Positions 1-5,378 of a DNA stretch of 5,378 nucleotides are shown in pieces. Numbering within the stretch: the stretch's first letter is position 1; every line of letters begins with the position of its first letter. Source of the DNA: a virus (taxonomy: Duplodnaviria; Heunggongvirae; Uroviricota; Caudoviricetes). A model generated the notes under the pieces. That model ran no database searches and had not been told where the DNA came from. It was given only the letters and a program-made list of their open reading frames with translations. The stretch spans positions 1 to 5,378 of IMG/VR virus record IMGVR_UViG_2695420579_000006, one strand, 5' to 3'. Both the position numbers and the translations under genes were made by a program.

Positions 1-58
1 TACTTAAGTATTTTTGATTCTATTCCGGCACCATCTAAAACTTCAAACGCGTTGAAAA

Positions 59-84
59 TAAAAACAAAAACCCGCCGAAGCGGG
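59..84 (-). terminator. Rho-independent terminator at the 3' end of hok-family transcript copy A
   Basis: Minus-strand hairpin CCCGC-UUCG-GCGGG (plus 71-84) followed by a U-run (plus-strand A-run 61-70). Confidence 0.6.
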
Positions 85-154
85 TTAAGTGTGGGTGCAT
101 TGAGGATGCCTGACCCATCAGAGGTGGCGAGGGATTTCTCCCCCGCCTGGTCTC

Positions 155-172
155 TTACTCCTCAGGTTCGTA
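155..172 (-). CDS. hok: 3' fragment of a hok-family toxin gene, HokD/RelF-like C-terminus (...YEPEE, stop at 155-157); the 5' part is lost in the N gap
   Basis: Minus-strand translation of 158-172 gives YEPEE then TAA. The flanking 3' UTR (97-172) is homologous but diverged from the copy B 3' UTR (284-359). Confidence 0.5.
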   Translation of the reverse strand, partial: YEPEE

Positions 173-193
173 NNNNNNNNNNNNNNNNNNNNN
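173..193. other. Assembly gap (21 N); true length and content unknown
   Basis: Run of n characters in the sequence. Confidence 0.95.
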
Positions 194-238
194 CTATCTG
201 CGAAGGTGCGCGAATCAAATTCACCGGAAATAAACAAC

Positions 239-282
239 AAAAAACCCGCCGAAACGCTGAGAGATCACAGCGATGGGCGGGT
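239..282 (-). terminator. Rho-independent terminator of hok mRNA copy B
   Basis: Minus-strand stem CCCGCC(282-277)/GGCGGG(250-245) with an inner CGCUG/CAGCG pairing, followed by a U-run (plus-strand A-run 239-244). Confidence 0.6.
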
Positions 283-353
283 TAAGTGCGGGTGCGTTGA
301 GGATGCCTGACACATCAAAGGTGGCGGGAGATTACTCTCCCGCCTGGTCACTC

Positions 354-509
354 TTACTCTCTAGATTCGTAGTCTACGAAAACAGCGACCTCCGTCTGGC
401 CGATTCGGATTCGTACCTCGCAGAGGTCTTTCCTCGTTACCAGTGCCGTCACTATGACGGTTAAACAGATGACGATCAGGGCGATTAACATCGCCTTTTG
501 CTGCTTCAT
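354..509 (-). CDS. hok: Hok/Gef-family type I toxin (51 aa: MKQQKAMLIALIVICLTVIVTALVTRKDLCEVRIRIGQTEVAVFVDYESRE), copy B
   Basis: Internal ATG at 509-507 of the 70-aa ORF 354-566, preceded by AAGGAGAAG. Strong similarity (from memory) to HokD/HokC: single TM helix and the conserved RKDLCEVRIR...TEVAVF core. Confidence 0.85.
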   Translation of the reverse strand: MKQQKAMLIALIVICLTVIVTALVTRKDLCEVRIRIGQTEVAVFVDYESRE

Positions 510-566
510 AGCCTGCTTCTCCTTGCCTTTCGGCACGTAAGAGGCTAACCTACATTTGTGAGACAT
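354..566 (-). CDS. mok: mok-like reading frame: in-frame 19-codon N-terminal extension of hok (70 aa), copy B
   Basis: ATG at 566-564 with GAGG 10 nt upstream. Its position matches mok of hok/sok loci (and MokC, as I recall it) relative to the sok promoter, which lies inside it. Confidence 0.5.
   Translation of the reverse strand: MSHKCRLASYVPKGKEKQAMKQQKAMLIALIVICLTVIVTALVTRKDLCEVRIRIGQTEVAVFVDYESRE
523..551 (+). promoter_or_regulatory. Predicted sok antisense promoter (-35 TTGCCT 523-528, 17-nt spacer, -10 TAACCT 546-551), copy B
   Basis: Sigma70-like hexamers with 17-nt spacing on the strand antisense to mok/hok. Same position and similar sequence to the plasmid R1 sok promoter as I recall it. 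Confidence 0.5.
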
Positions 567-628
567 AGATTGGGCCTCAGATTAATGTTAAGCGTCTTGC
601 AGGACGCGTAATGTTAACTGGGGCTTTT
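556..628 (+). ncRNA. sok: Predicted Sok-like antisense RNA (about 65-70 nt), copy B; ends approximate
   Basis: Starts just downstream of the predicted promoter and is antisense to the mok start and SD. Ends in a stem GCCUCAG(574-580)/CUGGGGC(615-621, one G-U pair) followed by UUUUCUCU. Confidence 0.5.
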
Positions 629-666
629 CTCTGTCTGCCTTACAGTGACATACCCGAGGCAGACAG

Positions 667-681
667 CCTCAAGCACCCGCA
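667..681 (-). promoter_or_regulatory. Candidate 5' tac-like element of hok mRNA, complementary to the 3' fbi-like element at 287-302
   Basis: Minus-strand 5'-UGCGGGUGCUUGAGG (681-667) is complementary, with one bulged base, to minus-strand CCUCAACGCACCCGCA (302-287) about 380 nt downstream in the same transcript. Confidence 0.45.
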
Positions 682-684
682 GCA

Positions 685-720
685 ATCTTACCGACACCGA
701 TAAGAAAACGCTATTTTTTA
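685..720 (-). promoter_or_regulatory. Approximate hok promoter region, copy B (-10 candidate TAAGAT at 690-685; no clear -35)
   Basis: Position inferred from the predicted 5' end of hok mRNA; the -35 match is poor. Confidence 0.3.
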
Positions 721-847
721 TTGCCAGCACCATCTATCCAGGCTAGTTTATCTGCGTCAGAACGGCGCAATGCGCTCGCCTGAGATACGTTTACTTGCCA
801 TGGTAACAACAGGTAACGGCAATTGCTGTTTCTGTTTTGTTTCCTTC

Positions 848-878
848 AAAAACCCCGGACCATCAATCCGGGGTTTTT
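848..878. terminator. Bidirectional intrinsic terminator between the upstream operon and the hok module, copy B
   Basis: Stem CCCCGGA(853-859)/UCCGGGG(867-873) flanked by an A-run (848-852) and a T-run (874-878). Confidence 0.65.
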
Positions 879-883
879 GTTTG

Positions 884-967
884 TTAACCCCAACGGCAAA
901 TCGAATACACCACCAGCGCCACCGCCATCGCAATTCCTACCGTTGTTAATGCTTCAGGCCAGGTCAT
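884..967 (-). CDS. Conserved 27-aa micro-ORF ([27 protein letters not shown]), predicted small hydrophobic peptide, copy B
   Basis: ATG at 967-965 overlaps the TGA of the 114-aa gene (ATGA). GGAGG lies 10 nt upstream, and the stop sits immediately before the terminator. An identical arrangement occurs in copy C with a different upstream gene. Confidence 0.45.
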
Positions 968-1308
968 CGTAAAATATCCTCCACGCTTATCAGTCCGTTC
1001 CGCTCCAGATAACTCATCGCCTTATCCGGTAATTTGCAGTCTGGCTTCGCTTTCCTCAGTTGCCAGGTTAACTGCTTTACCAGCATGGTTAACTCATCGA
1101 CCAGACGCTGATATCCCACTGGTTTGTATTCATGCAATTTACCGGCTGGCTCTGCTGCCAGCGATACCAGTGCGATTTCCAGAACAGCAATATCCATCTT
1201 ATATGTGCGGATGATGTCATGGTCGATTGTGCCCGGTATGCACAGTCTCTGTGCTTCAATAGTCTCCTCTGCGTGAGCTATTAACTGCTCTCTGGTAAAA
1301 GTCGTCAT
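964..1308 (-). CDS. Hypothetical prophage protein, 114 aa, carrying the shared N-terminal MTTFTREQ...[10 protein letters not shown] module
   Basis: Full ORF with AAGGGG SD 8 nt upstream of the ATG. Start overlaps the stop of the 55-aa ORF (ATGA). Confidence 0.7.
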
Positions 1309-1472
1309 GCCGTAGCCCCTTCTTGATATTTTTCAAACCAGAACACAACCGGCTCTGCTTCCAGCGATGCCAGCGCAATCCGTGCCAGTTCCATTTGTTC
1401 ACCACGGGTAAGCCCGTTTTCAAGCGGGTTTTTAATGAACAATTCAATACGTTCTTTGGTAATAGTGGTCAT
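1305..1472 (-). CDS. 55-aa mosaic ORF: N-terminal module related to the 221-aa gene, C-terminal 16 aa identical to the HNH C-terminus
   Basis: AAGGAG SD then ATG at 1472-1470. The 5' end is near-identical to 4476-4455. The 3' block 1306-1353 is identical to 4474-4521. Confidence 0.55.
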
Positions 1473-1482
1473 GTGTTACTCC

Positions 1483-1681
1483 TTAACCCGCAGTGCTTTC
1501 AACTGATGAGGGGAACAAAATCTTTTCATCAAACCCTGCATTCATATCATGAACAGCAACACACCAATCCATCGACGAACGATTATCAAGAGCCTCCATG
1601 ATTTCATCCATGCGGCGTAGGTCATACAGGTAAATGCTTTTATCGCCAATGGTGTAAAAGCCAATTTTTTTCGGTGATGGA
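1483..1681 (-). pseudogene. 3' remnant (about 66 codons) of a gene interrupted by the IS600-like element
   Basis: The open frame runs from the IS end at 1682 to TAA at 1485-1483. The first 10 codons of the listed 76-aa ORF come from IS terminal sequence. Confidence 0.45.
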
Positions 1682-1724
1682 TGAGGTGTACTGGCAATAG
1701 CGGACACTACCATTTGTTCTTTTT

Positions 1725-2543
1725 TTAAGCAGCCATCTGATGATATTTTTCCCTGAAGGCTGCCGGGGAGATATTCCCCAGACGAGAGTGACGACGCTGA
1801 CGATTGTAGAAAATCTCAATGTATTCCCGTATTACTGAGATGGCTTCATCCCGGTTATTAAAACGATAGTGGCTCAGGCTCTCATTTTTCAGCGTTCCCC
1901 AGAAGCTTTCCATCGGAGCGTTGTCGTAACAGTTACCTTTACGCGACATTGATGTTTTCAGACCAGACTGCTCCTGTATGACCCGGTAATCGTATGCGCA
2001 GTACTGTGAACCTCGATCAGAGTGGTGGATTAGCCCGGCAGGTGGGCGCTGGCTCCTGAGCGCCATAAACAGGGCTTTACCTGTCAGCTCTTTTGTCATG
2101 CGCTCTCCCATGGCGTAGCCGACAATTTCGCACGTATAAACATCTTTGATGCCAGCGAGGTACAACCATCCCTCCTGTGTGGCAACATACGTCAGGTCCG
2201 CCACCCAGACCTGATTTGGTGCTGTAGGAGCGAACGTCTGGTTCAGCAGATTTGGCGCAACTGGCAGATTGTGGTTCGAGTTCGTAGTCGCTCTGAACTT
2301 GCGTTTCTGCTTACAGCGTAGCCTTAGCTCCTTACGAAGACGTGCCAGTCGGTCACGACCAACGATGATGCCATTCTCTGCCAGCTCCGTCTGGAGCCGC
2401 CGGGTTCCATATGTTTCGCGAGTGCGGATATGTGCCACCTTAATCTCCAGTTTTAGCCGCTCATCACTTTGTTTTCTGTCTGAGGGTTCATGCTGTACCC
2501 AGTTGTAATAACCGCTCCTGGATACACCAAATACCTGACACAT
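1725..2543 (-). CDS. insB: IS3-family transposase OrfB (272 aa from the first ATG; frame stays open upstream into the frameshift window)
   Basis: Protein carries the rve/DDE integrase core (from memory). It is in the -1 frame relative to orfA. Confidence 0.9.
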   Translation of the reverse strand: MCQVFGVSRSGYYNWVQHEPSDRKQSDERLKLEIKVAHIRTRETYGTRRLQTELAENGIIVGRDRLARLRKELRLRCKQKRKFRATTNSNHNLPVAPNLLNQTFAPTAPNQVWVADLTYVATQEGWLYLAGIKDVYTCEIVGYAMGERMTKELTGKALFMALRSQRPPAGLIHHSDRGSQYCAYDYRVIQEQSGLKTSMSRKGNCYDNAPMESFWGTLKNESLSHYRFNNRDEAISVIREYIEIFYNRQRRHSRLGNISPAAFREKYHQMAA

Positions 2544-2578
2544 CGCTTCAATGGGAAATTGTTGTCGCCATTGTTCGA

Positions 2579-2819
2579 TTAACGCGTATTTTTCAGCGAC
2601 TCCTGTGCAAAATACGCTGTTGCTTTTTTTAATATATCTCGCTCAAGGCGAGCTTCATTTAACGCCTTACGCAGTTGCAGAATTTCAGATTCCAGTTCAG
2701 CCACCGTGCGGGAACCAGGAGTACCGAGCCCTTTTCTGGCGGCGGTAACCCATTGTCCTAAAGTGCCTTCAGGAAGAGATAATCGGGAAGCGCCTTCACT
2801 GATCGAAAGTTGATTTTCA
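2579..2819 (-). CDS. insA: IS3-family transposase OrfA, 5'-truncated (residues ~22-100; helix-turn-helix and leucine-zipper region)
   Basis: Translation ENQLSISEGASRLSLPEGTLGQWV...ILKKATAYFAQESLKNTR matches IS600 OrfA as I recall it. The native start codon is absent. Confidence 0.8.
2584..2630 (-). promoter_or_regulatory. Programmed -1 ribosomal frameshift site (A AAA AAA G at 2630-2624) with downstream 9-bp stem (2618-2610 / 2592-2584) producing OrfAB
   Basis: A heptanucleotide run of A in the orfA zero frame. The -1 frame is continuous into orfB. The stem GCGUAUUUU/AAAAUACGC begins about 6 nt downstream. Confidence 0.6.
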
Positions 2820-2820
2820 N
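2820..2820. other. Single ambiguous base at the junction between the truncated IS and the hok copy C 3' region
   Basis: IS orfA homology ends at 2819; hok-module homology (equivalent to 339 onward) begins at 2821. Confidence 0.9.
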
Positions 2821-2835
2821 CCCGCCTGGTCACTC

Positions 2836-2991
2836 TTACTCTCTAGATTCGTAGTCTACGAAAACAGCGACCTCCGTCTGGCCGATTCGGATTCGTACCT
2901 CGCAGAGGTCTTTCCTCGTTACCAGTGCCGTCACAATGACGGTTAAACAGATGACGATCAGGGCGATTAACATCGCCTTTTGCTGCTTCAT
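2836..2991 (-). CDS. hok: Hok/Gef-family type I toxin, copy C (identical protein to copy B)
   Basis: Same as copy B, offset +2482. It differs by one synonymous third-position change (ATA to ATT, Ile, at 2935). Confidence 0.85.
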   Translation of the reverse strand: MKQQKAMLIALIVICLTVIVTALVTRKDLCEVRIRIGQTEVAVFVDYESRE

Positions 2992-3048
2992 AGCCTGCTT
3001 CTCCTTGCCTTTCGGCACGTAAGAGGCTAACCTACATTTGTGAGACAT
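2836..3048 (-). CDS. mok: mok-like in-frame extended reading frame, copy C
   Basis: Identical to copy B at offset +2482. Confidence 0.5.
   Translation of the reverse strand: MSHKCRLASYVPKGKEKQAMKQQKAMLIALIVICLTVIVTALVTRKDLCEVRIRIGQTEVAVFVDYESRE
3005..3033 (+). promoter_or_regulatory. Predicted sok promoter, copy C (-35 TTGCCT 3005-3010, -10 TAACCT 3028-3033)
   Basis: Identical to copy B at offset +2482. Confidence 0.5.
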
Positions 3049-3110
3049 AGATTGGGCCTCAGATTAATGTTAAGCGTCTTGCAGGACGCGTAATGTTAAC
3101 TGGGGCTTTT
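3038..3110 (+). ncRNA. sok: Predicted Sok-like antisense RNA, copy C; ends approximate
   Basis: Identical to copy B at offset +2482. Confidence 0.5.
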
Positions 3111-3329
3111 CTCTGTCTGCCTTACAGTGACATACCCGAGGCAGACAGCCTCAAGCACCCGCAGCAATCTTACCGACACCGATAAGAAAACGCTATTTTT
3201 TATTGCCAGCACCATCTATCCAGGCTAGTTTATCTGCGTCAGAACGGCGCAATGCGCTCGCCTGAGATACGTTTACTTGCCATGGTAACAACAGGTAACG
3301 GCAATTGCTGTTTCTGTTTTGTTTCCTTC

Positions 3330-3360
3330 AAAAACCCCGGACCATCAATCCGGGGTTTTT
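3330..3360. terminator. Bidirectional intrinsic terminator, copy C
   Basis: Identical hairpin to 848-878. Confidence 0.65.
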
Positions 3361-3365
3361 GTTTG

Positions 3366-3449
3366 TTAACCCCAACGGCAAATCGAATACACCACCAGCG
3401 CCACCGCCATCGCAATTCCTACCGTGGTGAATGCCTCAGGCCAGGTCAT
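3366..3449 (-). CDS. Conserved 27-aa micro-ORF, copy C ([27 protein letters not shown])
   Basis: ATG at 3449-3447 overlaps the TGA of the DUF551-like gene (ATGA), with AGGAGG 7 nt upstream. The three differences from copy B are all at codon third positions. Confidence 0.45.
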   Translation of the reverse strand: MTWPEAFTTVGIAMAVALVVYSICRWG

Positions 3450-3811
3450 TGATTCACCTCCTGCGGTGGTTCCGGTAGCGGCATCCAGTGAGTTGAGCTC
3501 TCTACTTCAACGCCGTCTTTGTCCACAAAAGCCATCTTATTCCCGCCACGAGTGGGGCAAAAAACCTTATCCCAGGAACCGGGGAATACATTCCCGAGAT
3601 CATCGAGAAGAATCACATCGCAATATTCAGCAGGAACTGCATCACTACAGCTTATCCAGCCAGCCGGAGCTACCGGAGAGTTGCCAGCCTTACGCATGGC
3701 CATTTCCACGATTTCAACCATATCTCCTGGTGGAATTTTACAAAGTTGCCCAATACATTTCTGCTGCCTGGCATATTCGAGAATGTGCTCCAGTTTGGTT
3801 CGATTAATCAT
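3446..3811 (-). CDS. Prophage protein, 121 aa, DUF551-like (C-terminal THWMPLPEPP motif)
   Basis: Full ORF with GGGAG SD. Start overlaps the stop of the 221-aa gene (TAATG). The DUF551 call rests on the recalled C-terminal motif only. Confidence 0.65.
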   Translation of the reverse strand: MINRTKLEHILEYARQQKCIGQLCKIPPGDMVEIVEMAMRKAGNSPVAPAGWISCSDAVPAEYCDVILLDDLGNVFPGSWDKVFCPTRGGNKMAFVDKDGVEVESSTHWMPLPEPPQEVNQ

Positions 3812-4476
3812 TATTTATCTCCCTTAAGCATGGCAGCGCGGCAGGCGTTCCAGCCATCAACATAATCAAACGTATTACTATCGTTTGGCCCGATTTCATC
3901 CGGCACTATCGGCTCTGGTTGGATAGTGACGTTGGCAAAGGCAGCACGCAAACCGGTTTTAATTTCTTCGATTTCATCAGAGCCAAGCGATGAATCTGAC
4001 AGTGCGTGATGGAATGCGTAAGCCATGTCGTCGTTTACTGCAACCGGCACTGCCGGCGCTGCGTAAAGCGGTGTTATATCTGCCCGAAAATCACATGCTT
4101 TATGCAGTCGTACCCAACACTCAACTTCCGCTTTGTCAAAATATATAGCAGTGAACGTATTAGATTCCTGGTCAACTTGAGTAAACGTCACCTTCCACGC
4201 TACAGCTACGGCTTTCCATCCATCAGGTTGTCGCATTCGCGGGGCAGCATAAAGCTCATGCATTCCATCAGGCAGCGAGTGACCCACATACTCACCGAAC
4301 CCGTCAATACACATGCCCCCATCTTCAACAATGCATTCCGCTACAGGCTCTGCTTCCAGTGATGCCAGAGCGATAAGCGCCAGTTCACGAATTTCACCGC
4401 CGTCTATATCGTCAATATCATCGCGGCCAGAAATGTTAGCCAGCCATTGCAGTCGCTCTTTGGTAATAGTGGTCAT
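3811..4476 (-). CDS. Hypothetical prophage protein, 221 aa, with the shared N-terminal module (MTTITKER...[10 protein letters not shown]) and two LYAAP motifs
   Basis: Full ORF with AAGGGG SD 8 nt upstream. Start overlaps the HNH stop (ATGA). Confidence 0.75.
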   Translation of the reverse strand: MTTITKERLQWLANISGRDDIDDIDGGEIRELALIALASLEAEPVAECIVEDGGMCIDGFGEYVGHSLPDGMHELYAAPRMRQPDGWKAVAVAWKVTFTQVDQESNTFTAIYFDKAEVECWVRLHKACDFRADITPLYAAPAVPVAVNDDMAYAFHHALSDSSLGSDEIEEIKTGLRAAFANVTIQPEPIVPDEIGPNDSNTFDYVDGWNACRAAMLKGDK

Positions 4477-4838
4477 GCCGTAGCCCCTTCTTGATATTTT
4501 TCAAACCAGAACACAACCGGGTCAGATTTCATTTCAACCAATCCCATACGAACCAGCGCTTTGCCTTTCCCGGACGCAAGGAATTCACGACGACCATCAC
4601 TGATAATTCGTCGATAATCTTCCAGGCTACTGCAATGCTTGTGCAGATTGCATGGGTGGCATGCTGGTACCATGTTGGATATATCGTCACGTTCCTGGTG
4701 AAGCATATTTCCATCAAAACGAATGACCGGTTTTACATGGTCTGCATGCCACTTTTCGCCAAGTTCGCAGCCGCAATAAGCGCAGCGACCACCGAACTTC
4801 ATGCGCAGTTCTGCACGTTGTTTTTTCGTCAGTGCCAT
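4473..4838 (-). CDS. HNH endonuclease, 121 aa from the internal ATG at 4838
   Basis: HNH signature CAYCGC...WHADHVKP...ACHPCNLHKH. The start is chosen at MALTKKQ, with AAGGAAA upstream and 1 nt after the stop of the 72-aa ORF. The longer 151-aa frame would overlap that ORF. Confidence 0.8.
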   Translation of the reverse strand: MALTKKQRAELRMKFGGRCAYCGCELGEKWHADHVKPVIRFDGNMLHQERDDISNMVPACHPCNLHKHCSSLEDYRRIISDGRREFLASGKGKALVRMGLVEMKSDPVVFWFEKYQEGATA

Positions 4839-4839
4839 A

Positions 4840-5058
4840 TCAGCTTTCCTTATACGGATTAATTTTATTGTGCAGTGTGTTGAATGACGCCCATACCACG
4901 TCGTTATACAATTCAATAACTGGCTCAATTATTTTTCCGATTATCCAGACAAAAATTAGCGGGGATATCGGTGTCATCAACACGATAAACAGAATGAGAA
5001 ACAGGAATTCTGTTGTTCTACTCTTTCGCGGATATTTTTTTCTAAATAATGTAACCAT
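4840..5058 (-). CDS. Small membrane protein, 72 aa: basic N-terminus, one long hydrophobic segment; sits in a locally AT-rich segment
   Basis: ORF MVTLFRKKYPRKSRTTEFLFLILFIVLMTPISPLIFVWIIG.... Stop is 1 nt before the HNH start. The leader is structured (see hairpin feature). Confidence 0.5.
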   Translation of the reverse strand: MVTLFRKKYPRKSRTTEFLFLILFIVLMTPISPLIFVWIIGKIIEPVIELYNDVVWASFNTLHNKINPYKES

Positions 5059-5064
5059 TCATTA

Positions 5065-5086
5065 CCGCCCTTTCGGGCGGTCTCCT
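5065..5086 (-). promoter_or_regulatory. Leader hairpin CCGCCC-GAAA-GGGCGG (5080-5065) between an AGGAG (5086-5082) and the ATG of the 72-aa ORF
   Basis: Perfect 6-bp GC-rich stem with a GNRA tetraloop. The AGGAG is 23 nt from the ATG in linear sequence but about 7 nt if the hairpin is formed. Confidence 0.4.
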
Positions 5087-5150
5087 GATGATTTGAGGGT
5101 GCAGAAATCCCTCCGGTTAAGGATTAAATTTTTAACAGTGCTAAATTTAA

Positions 5151-5378
5151 TTATTCAGTTCTGGATTTTGTCGCCCTGCGTATCCGCGCTTTCGCGTTAC
5201 GCTCAATCTGTATCAGCTTTTCTATATTTCTCCGCCTTTCCTGTTCCTCCTGGCGCAATAGCCTTACATCATCTGCCAGTCTGGTTTCTCTTTTTGCCAC
5301 AGAGAGCATCCAGTCAAACGGCTCCACAACCGCACCGCAGATTTTACAGCGGACCTGACGCTCTTTTTCGTCAACCCG
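5151..5378 (-). CDS. 3' portion (75 codons) of an unidentified gene running off the right edge; contains CKICG and a basic, coiled-coil-like C-terminus
   Basis: Minus-strand frame is open from the window edge to TAA at 5153-5151 (...RVDEKERQVRCKICGAVVEPFDWMLSVAKRE...ARIRRATKSRTE). Not in the ORF track because the start lies outside the window. Confidence 0.4.
   Translation of the reverse strand, partial: RVDEKERQVRCKICGAVVEPFDWMLSVAKRETRLADDVRLLRQEEQERRRNIEKLIQIERNAKARIRRATKSRTE

Follow-up and report, generated by a model that had tools for sequence, protein, structure and literature searches.

The window examined here is the whole of a 5,378-nucleotide (nt) stretch of Caudoviricetes DNA, positions 1 to 5,378 of the IMG/VR record IMGVR_UViG_2695420579_000006. 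It carries, twice on its minus strand, an open reading frame (ORF) of only 27 codons, hereafter the micro-ORF. An earlier note on this DNA, made from the letters alone, had reported these two copies, here termed B and C, and had described each as overlapping the end of a different upstream gene whose last codons encode a Shine-Dalgarno (SD) sequence. The ORF listing bears out both frames, the ends of the upstream ORFs at 964 and 3446 place each stop codon over a micro-ORF start, and SD motifs are found with spacers of 10 and 7 nt. The features concerned are:

884..967, minus strand: micro-ORF copy B, 27 codons plus TAA, from the ORF listing
978..982, minus strand: SD sequence GGAGG of copy B, 10 nt before the ATG, within the last codons of the 114-amino-acid (aa) gene
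964..1308, minus strand: 114-aa gene upstream of copy B, its TGA overlapping the micro-ORF ATG (4-nt ATGA)
3366..3449, minus strand: micro-ORF copy C, 27 codons plus TAA, from the ORF listing
3457..3462, minus strand: SD sequence AGGAGG of copy C, 7 nt before the ATG, within the last codons of the DUF551 gene
3446..3811, minus strand: 121-aa DUF551 gene upstream of copy C, its TGA overlapping the micro-ORF ATG (4-nt ATGA)

The two upstream genes are unrelated, as had been proposed: the 121-aa protein, previously called DUF551-like, matches the Pfam profile of that family (PF04448, E=3.4e-19), the 114-aa protein matches only PHROGs of unknown function (phrog_660/924), and a BLASTP comparison of the two finds no similarity (E=10). 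The DUF551 protein encoded at 3446-3811 is identical to a Shigella-named protein present on at least 1000 contigs, which hints that the DNA derives from Shigella or a close E. coli. Copies B and C differ at exactly three sites, each of them a third codon position (GAA/GAG, TTA/TTC and ACA/ACC), which also agrees with the earlier description, and one of the three alters a residue (L7F). Both copies lie within a near-identical repeat of ~650 bp comprising hok/mok/sok, a terminator and the micro-ORF, in which homology stops exactly at the micro-ORF ATG. A comparison within the window is therefore almost powerless, three third-position differences between two recent repeat copies are by themselves no evidence of selection, and the case rests on ~280 external loci.

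Most of these loci were gathered by peptide pattern: scans of small peptide alignments against IMG/VR and GTDB genomes yielded ~200 loci, and phage records were also used. About 280 related loci in all keep the frame, 203 of them ascertained through the peptide. All 203 peptide-ascertained ORFs are open and 200 are exactly 27 codons long; the set holds 21 peptide variants and 53 nucleotide alleles. A second sample of 80 loci was anchored on nucleotide sequence, with a retrieval pattern restricted to the last 8 codons. An ATG followed by a frame of 27 codons is present in 72 of these, a GTG start in 2, an in-frame 6-nt deletion in 3 (W3-P4 lost twice, A17-L18 lost once) and a broken frame in 3, i.e. 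the frame is open in 77/80 (~96%) and indels are mostly multiples of 3. Homologues with a broken frame, which the earlier note had set against its own proposal, do exist, but they account for 3/80 loci (~4%): one has a nonsense codon at W3 and two have a common 1-nt deletion at codon 2-3. Further natural variants include a stop at W26, leaving 25 aa, and a stop-loss extension.

Substitutions among the alleles are unevenly distributed over the codon. Variable sites across 52 alleles number 11, 9 and 22 at codon positions 1, 2 and 3, respectively, and the pairwise ratio of non-synonymous to synonymous rates (dN/dS) is 0.24 in the sense frame versus 1.0-2.9 in four other frames. Parsimony on a neighbour-joining tree of 54 alleles yielded 148 substitutions, distributed 27/26/95 over the three codon positions; 86 are synonymous and 62 non-synonymous, compared with a neutral ratio of ~25:75 (binomial p~1e-17), the dN/dS values being pairwise estimates and the counts parsimony ones. 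Replacements in the sense frame are conservative (A/V, V/I, F/L and T/S, mean BLOSUM62 +0.44), and the remaining two sense frames have stops in every allele. Together, these results point to a peptide encoded in the sense frame and held under purifying selection.

The conserved unit has sharp limits. In a comparison of 69 context-distinct loci, the flanks have a mean pairwise identity of ~0.35; the value is 0.77 at positions -12 to -7, where the SD lies, and 0.75-1.0 over the ORF, and it drops to 0.36 in the first 6 nt past the stop. Conservation thus coincides exactly with the SD and the ORF, ~100 bp in length. A GGAGG-like block lies 7-10 nt upstream of the start in nearly all junction types, and the start is ATG, rarely GTG. 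Coupling to differing upstream genes, which had been noticed for two junctions, holds well beyond the window: the ATGA overlap is scored in 203/203 loci, the score of the MN- clade being derived from its ATG-AAT codon pair. In that clade the true overlap (ATGA or GTGA) falls at an in-frame ATG/GTG located 3 nt upstream, resulting in a 28-aa product. The upstream genes fall into at least four families (114-aa, DUF551, 933W L0139-like and EaA-like) and the downstream contexts into at least three classes (hok; DUF4222, whether xis is present or not; terminators or other), and most pairings of upstream family with downstream class occur. hok lies within 900 nt in 83/203 loci, and a position next to DUF4222-xis, away from any hok, is equally common. 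Four records exemplify these combinations:

933W: upstream L0139, downstream sokW/hokW; 27 codons, abutting the preceding gene
YYZ-2008: upstream DUF551, downstream DUF4222-xis-int; 27 codons, abutting the preceding gene
TH18: upstream EaA, downstream ea22; 27 codons, abutting the preceding gene
ArgO145: upstream 114-aa gene, downstream toxin-antitoxin pair; 27 codons, abutting the preceding gene

The proposal of a gene for a small hydrophobic peptide gains support from purifying selection and exact boundaries, and from the constancy of length, start, SD and stop. On this comparative sequence evidence, there is a high probability that the 84-nt frame is a real gene, translated into a membrane micropeptide and coupled to its upstream neighbour as part of an early phage operon.

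The immediate downstream neighbours of both copies in the window are a terminator and a hok locus:

847..879, both strands: bidirectional intrinsic terminator hairpin after copy B, A5-CCCCGG...CCGGGG-T5, beginning 4 nt past the stop
3329..3361, both strands: the same terminator after copy C, beginning 4 nt past the stop
354..566, minus strand: mok/hok toxin ORF downstream of copy B (PF01848), outside the micro-ORF cassette; Rfam sok match at 504-678
2836..3048, minus strand: mok/hok toxin ORF downstream of copy C; Rfam sok match at 2986-3160

The hairpin has 13-15 bp between A5 and T5 (-25.5 kcal/mol, z=-3.5), and the presence of A5/T5 on both flanks means that the terminator should be able to act in both directions. 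The earlier statement that the ORF ends at an intrinsic terminator is accurate for both copies in the window and does not generalise: this terminator is common to only ~12/203 loci, and elsewhere a hok promoter, the DUF4222 start codon or other sequence directly follows the cassette.

Several observations concern the remainder of the window. A second mosaic junction is seen on comparing 1287-1363 with 4455-4531 (91% identity), where a 55-aa ORF and an HNH endonuclease have a common C-terminus followed by an ATGA onto starts of the type 'MTT(F/I)T...', and further ATGA overlaps lie at 1305/1308, 3811 and 4473/4476. Throughout the region, genes coupled by ATGA overlaps follow one another in a chain whose modules have been shuffled. 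The two mok/hok/sok loci are complete, each with a sok score of 118 bits in Rfam, and a third, partial hok mRNA 3' end lies at 80-155 (88% identical to 277-352). Overlapping this hok 3'-end repeat, 65-146 on the minus strand gives a weak, sub-threshold match to the prophage small RNA (sRNA) isrK in Rfam (25.7 bits versus a gathering score of 50), which ends at a terminator-like hairpin at 86-69. There is an N-run at 173-193 and a single n at 2820, and an element of the insertion sequence family IS3 at 1714-2820 (minus strand, with orfB at 1725-2543 and the remnant of an orfA at 2579-2819) breaks off at that n and abuts the hok 3' end. Given the N-run, the n-truncated element and the partial third hok 3' end, the window seems to be a scaffold or draft join. 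Finally, the early region that holds the micro-ORF encodes one more small membrane protein: a strongly hydrophobic 72-aa ORF at 4840-5058 (minus strand), which has a match (E=1.5e-44) to phrog_1832, 'released from the phage upon host infection'.

We then considered the genomic setting. Where the micro-ORF is hok-linked, the genes follow one another on the same strand in the order cro, replication genes, DUF1627, DUF4014, HNH/DUF551/114-aa, micro-ORF, hok, RusA/DUF1367, Q-like DUF1133 and lysis genes. From this synteny, the micro-ORF of the window belongs to the rightward early operon, in a nin-like segment with the replication genes on one side and the Q-like antiterminator on the other, and is not, as the earlier note had it, the distal gene of the leftward operon. 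In YYZ-2008-type phages the micro-ORF does occupy the leftward exo-xis (PL) region, where it precedes DUF4222-xis-int and is not distal. In 933W it lies near the right end of the prophage.

The micro-ORF is very widespread. A tblastn search with the peptide, a check which the earlier note had proposed together with dN/dS and which like it came out in favour of a conserved gene, matched 95 phage records at 55-96% identity, including 933W, VT1-Sakai, VT2-Sakai, Stx2 II, BP-4795, YYZ-2008 and ArgO145. By blastn, the 84-nt sequence is present in 1633/5426 complete E. coli genomes (~30%) at 3105 places; a single genome has as many as 7 of them, and 163 lie on plasmids. The species representatives of GTDB gave matches in E. 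coli and Shigella only, apart from two contigs that are likely contaminants. One plasmid copy, the variant MSWPEAFATVGIVMAAALGLYSICRWW, is carried by the ~95-kb p1303_95 (2501-2584 of the retrieved stretch), which looks P1-like judging from its DNA polymerase III theta homologue. The 134-kb vB_EcoM_TH18 record, classified in the Vequintavirinae, also holds the cassette (1501-1584 of the retrieved stretch) together with ea22/EaA-type genes, an unusual location for an accessory module of lambdoid type. No copy was detected by tblastn (E<=0.05, with working positive controls) in the K-12 prophages Rac, Qin, DLP12 and e14, or, for the peptide, in the int-to-N region of lambda. K-12 is the strain with the most thorough cataloguing of small proteins.

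The annotation record is mixed. The view that the micro-ORF is missed by annotation holds for five stretches annotated by RefSeq/PGAP (Prokaryotic Genome Annotation Pipeline) and for four further distinct phage records examined, in all of which it is unannotated. It does not hold throughout: the exact peptide has been deposited as 'putative prophage protein' (E. coli 042), as 'bacteriophage protein' (CVM9545) and under FORC locus tags, and PGAP sometimes calls a context-specific 45-aa extension (WP_423274943.1). In addition, NCBI/PGAP label read-through fragments of the micro-ORF frame (e.g. GGESMTWPEAF...) 'DUF551 domain-containing protein, partial', and clusters at 90% identity therefore mix the peptide with true DUF551 proteins; the peptide itself has no match to the DUF551 profile (PF04448). 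The Stx2 II feature '(x2) hypothetical protein' was considered as an annotated micro-ORF and rejected, the second feature being a long antisense ORF (C38). A literature search found no match to the peptide string and no description of the micro-ORF, and two papers on exo-xis make no mention of such an ORF. The ribosome profiling (Ribo-seq) study of small ORFs in enterohaemorrhagic E. coli Sakai by Huecker et al. 2017 limited its screen to ORFs of >=30 aa; neither the peptide nor any name of its annotated homologues is matched in the small-ORF supplements, a result that is uninformative since ORFs <30 aa were excluded.

What would the product be? Residues 6-24 form a 19-residue hydrophobic window with a mean Kyte-Doolittle value of 2.1-2.4, a prediction that agrees with the small hydrophobic peptide of the earlier note. 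The hydrophobic stretch is flanked by W3 on one side and by Y21, R25 and W26 on the other. Across 22 variants, M1, W3, G11, A15, Y21, S22, R25 and W26 are invariant, and P4, E/D5, A6 and A17 nearly so. On a helical wheel, G11, A15, L/F18 and S22 fall at 260-320 degrees and, with P4 and R25 added, the small-residue face of the helix spans 240-320 degrees. Profile searches returned little: PHROG matches are weak (phrog_4612, E=0.011; phrog_35838, E=0.085), the 45-aa extended form has no PHROG match, and KdpF (TIGR02115) scores 12.5 bits, below its cutoff of 26.85 (E=0.12).

These features suggest the following model. The cassette, a GGAGG SD plus 27 codons, closes the 3' end of accessory gene clusters of the ead/Ea22, DUF551 and '114-aa' types, which belong to early operons in lambdoid prophages, Stx (Shiga toxin) phages and some P1-like plasmids. 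It would be transcribed with the delayed-early phage message and translated by termination-reinitiation coupling at the ATGA, aided by its own SD. The product would be a single-pass inner-membrane micropeptide with residues ~6-24 spanning the bilayer. Because of its acidic N-terminus (M-x-W-P-E/D) and R25, the positive-inside rule predicts an N-out/C-in topology, with the N-terminus in the periplasm and R25-W26 at the cytoplasmic face. Since the invariant residues lie on one face of the helix, helix packing is the most likely mode of action: the G11/A15/S22 face, with P4, L/F18 and R25, may pack on another transmembrane helix and modulate that partner during early lytic growth. The partner could be the peptide itself, forming an oligomer, or a host or phage inner-membrane protein.

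Several known systems resemble parts of this model. AcrZ, MgrB, MgtS, KdpF, CydX and PmrR are single-pass enterobacterial inner-membrane proteins of <50 aa that bind larger membrane proteins. The micropeptide is like them in size, in having one helix with aromatic or charged flanks, in its conserved face and in being often missed by annotation; it differs in showing no sequence relationship to them and in being a phage-borne mobile cassette that is not in the four K-12 lambdoid prophages. The 'interlinked genes' of lambda ninR are ATGA-overlapped, translationally coupled chains, which are also found in exo-xis regions. As in these lambdoid chains, the micro-ORF has a 4-nt ATGA with an SD inside the upstream coding sequence, and other gene pairs in the window are alike in this; unlike them, it has no more than 27 codons and is found again, without change, after at least four unrelated upstream genes. 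Phage morons and superinfection-exclusion membrane proteins are accessory units of temperate phages. The micro-ORF is similarly accessory, dispensable and horizontally shuffled, with a product predicted to be membrane-located; in contrast to a moron it has no fixed promoter or terminator of its own and rides on upstream translation and early-operon transcription. A precedent for translation comes from lambda, for which PMC8614690 cites ribosome profiling of the exo-xis region with peptides of 7 and 31 aa. These too come from micro-ORFs that lack annotation and lie in an early accessory region of the same kind; the 31-aa ORF (MNMKSKIIRELQAPFLLFAFTLKRINQQFRD) has no visible similarity to the micropeptide.

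Other explanations of the locus have to be weighed against that of a coupled gene for a membrane micropeptide. One retains the gene and changes its function: the product would be a membrane-damaging toxin, either a type I toxin or a single-gene lysis peptide, which depolarises or permeabilises the inner membrane with no specific partner. Like the type I toxins (Hok/Gef, Ibs, ShoB, DinQ, TisB and ZorO) the micropeptide is tiny and hydrophobic, and it often lies directly upstream of hok/sok, as seen in the proportion of loci with hok nearby. We nonetheless consider a toxin unlikely. The strong SD and the obligatory upstream coupling are unlike a silenced stand-alone mRNA, no Rfam antisense RNA family lies over the ORF (an unknown sRNA could escape such a scan), and no promoter-like site was found when searched for on the opposite strand within the ORF. 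The peptide has no HOK_GEF match, while the adjacent hok scores 76 bits for PF01848, and Pfam, NCBIfam and PADLOC gave no above-threshold match to a toxin family. Moreover, the invariant small-residue face suggests specific packing, a genome may hold up to 7 copies, and the cassette is as frequent beside DUF4222-xis, far from hok. Very unlikely, in our view, is a role in cis, in which the act of translation alone matters, by blocking Rho-dependent polarity or by occluding the 5' arm of the terminator and so tuning read-through into hok and the genes beyond, with the peptide as a by-product. ATGA coupling is universal, and in the window the stop codon is close enough to the hairpin to place it inside the footprint of a terminating ribosome; yet it is the amino acids that are constrained, as judged from the dN/dS of 0.24, the conservative replacements and the eight invariant residues, the length is fixed at 27 codons, and the terminator context is a minority one.

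Less credible again is the notion that the ~100 bp encode nothing, the open frame being incidental, and serve as a recombination 'linker' at a mosaic boundary or as an RNA element. The block does lie exactly at the exchange point of upstream and downstream modules, and the junction at 1287-1363/4455-4531 is of the same style. However, neither a linker nor an RNA structure would be expected to show the three-base periodicity of 27/26/95 and the synonymous excess, ~96% of copies keep the frame intact with indels mainly in multiples of 3, and no Rfam family matches. The least probable explanation, for which we see hardly any likelihood, is that coding lies on the opposite strand, or that the peptide is made solely by frameshifting, as a membrane anchor fused to the C-terminus of the upstream protein. 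Antisense frame -1 has no stop in 51/52 alleles and a dN/dS equal to that of the sense frame, and in DUF551 contexts the micro-ORF frame is open for 18 codons further upstream (the 45-aa forms). Against antisense coding, the ORF listing shows no ORF across copy B in the antisense frame whose third positions coincide with those of the sense frame, and the only one at copy C, 3424-3807 on the plus strand, starts within the first 26 nt of the micro-ORF, spans just these, and is otherwise antisense to DUF551; antisense replacements are less conservative (mean BLOSUM62 -0.37), and conservation ends at the sense start and stop. Against a fusion, the 114-aa context has TGA TAA seven codons upstream in the micro-ORF frame, and no canonical slippery heptamer was seen in the listed junctions, which were inspected by eye without a formal scan. 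Both readings were rejected on the absence of an antisense ORF at copy B, the less conservative replacements and the upstream TGA TAA.

A number of points nevertheless weigh against the micropeptide gene as we describe it. The peptide has no relative among characterised proteins, searches of Pfam, NCBIfam, PADLOC and PDB having given no significant match. Translation of the micro-ORF and its peptide product are what we infer from sequence, and the helix-packing mechanism is drawn only from the residue pattern and from analogy. Ascertainment by peptide pattern favours intact frames, which the 80-locus nucleotide-anchored sample corrects only partly, and the parsimony counts take no account of recombination, which may inflate the number of events. 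The antisense frame that shares its third positions with the sense frame also has a dN/dS of 0.24, an artefact expected because those positions coincide; antisense ORFs were assigned to reading frames by hand, and the antisense frame is rejected on indirect grounds only. Lastly, the few pseudogenised copies mean that the gene is dispensable.

The micropeptide gene can also be taken further, to a possible if rather doubtful reading as a 'micro-moron': a self-contained unit of ~100 bp, SD plus 27 codons, that recombines at its own boundaries behind unrelated early genes and borrows the transcription and translation of its hosts, and whose peptide targets a specific host inner-membrane protein via the G11/A15/S22 face. 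The target may be, e.g., a transporter, a component of DNA entry or exclusion, or a membrane-bound defence effector.

The micro-ORF is an uncharacterised addition to the small phage and bacterial membrane proteins missed by annotation, and its existence is unsurprising to a specialist. As a conserved micropeptide gene that lies under the usual length filters it makes a clean example, and the comparative signal is enough to justify annotating it. The gene occurs in ~30% of complete E. coli genomes, often in multiple copies, in the five reference Stx phages 933W, VT1-Sakai, VT2-Sakai, Stx2 II and BP-4795, and on P1-like plasmids. Small membrane peptides commonly regulate transporters, sensor kinases or membrane integrity. 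We speculate that a peptide made early in the lytic growth of these phages could affect induction, exclusion or host physiology in Shiga-toxin-producing strains. If the peptide does target a specific inner-membrane protein of the host, a hitherto unrecognised function in host manipulation would be common to Stx phages, other lambdoid prophages and P1-like plasmids.

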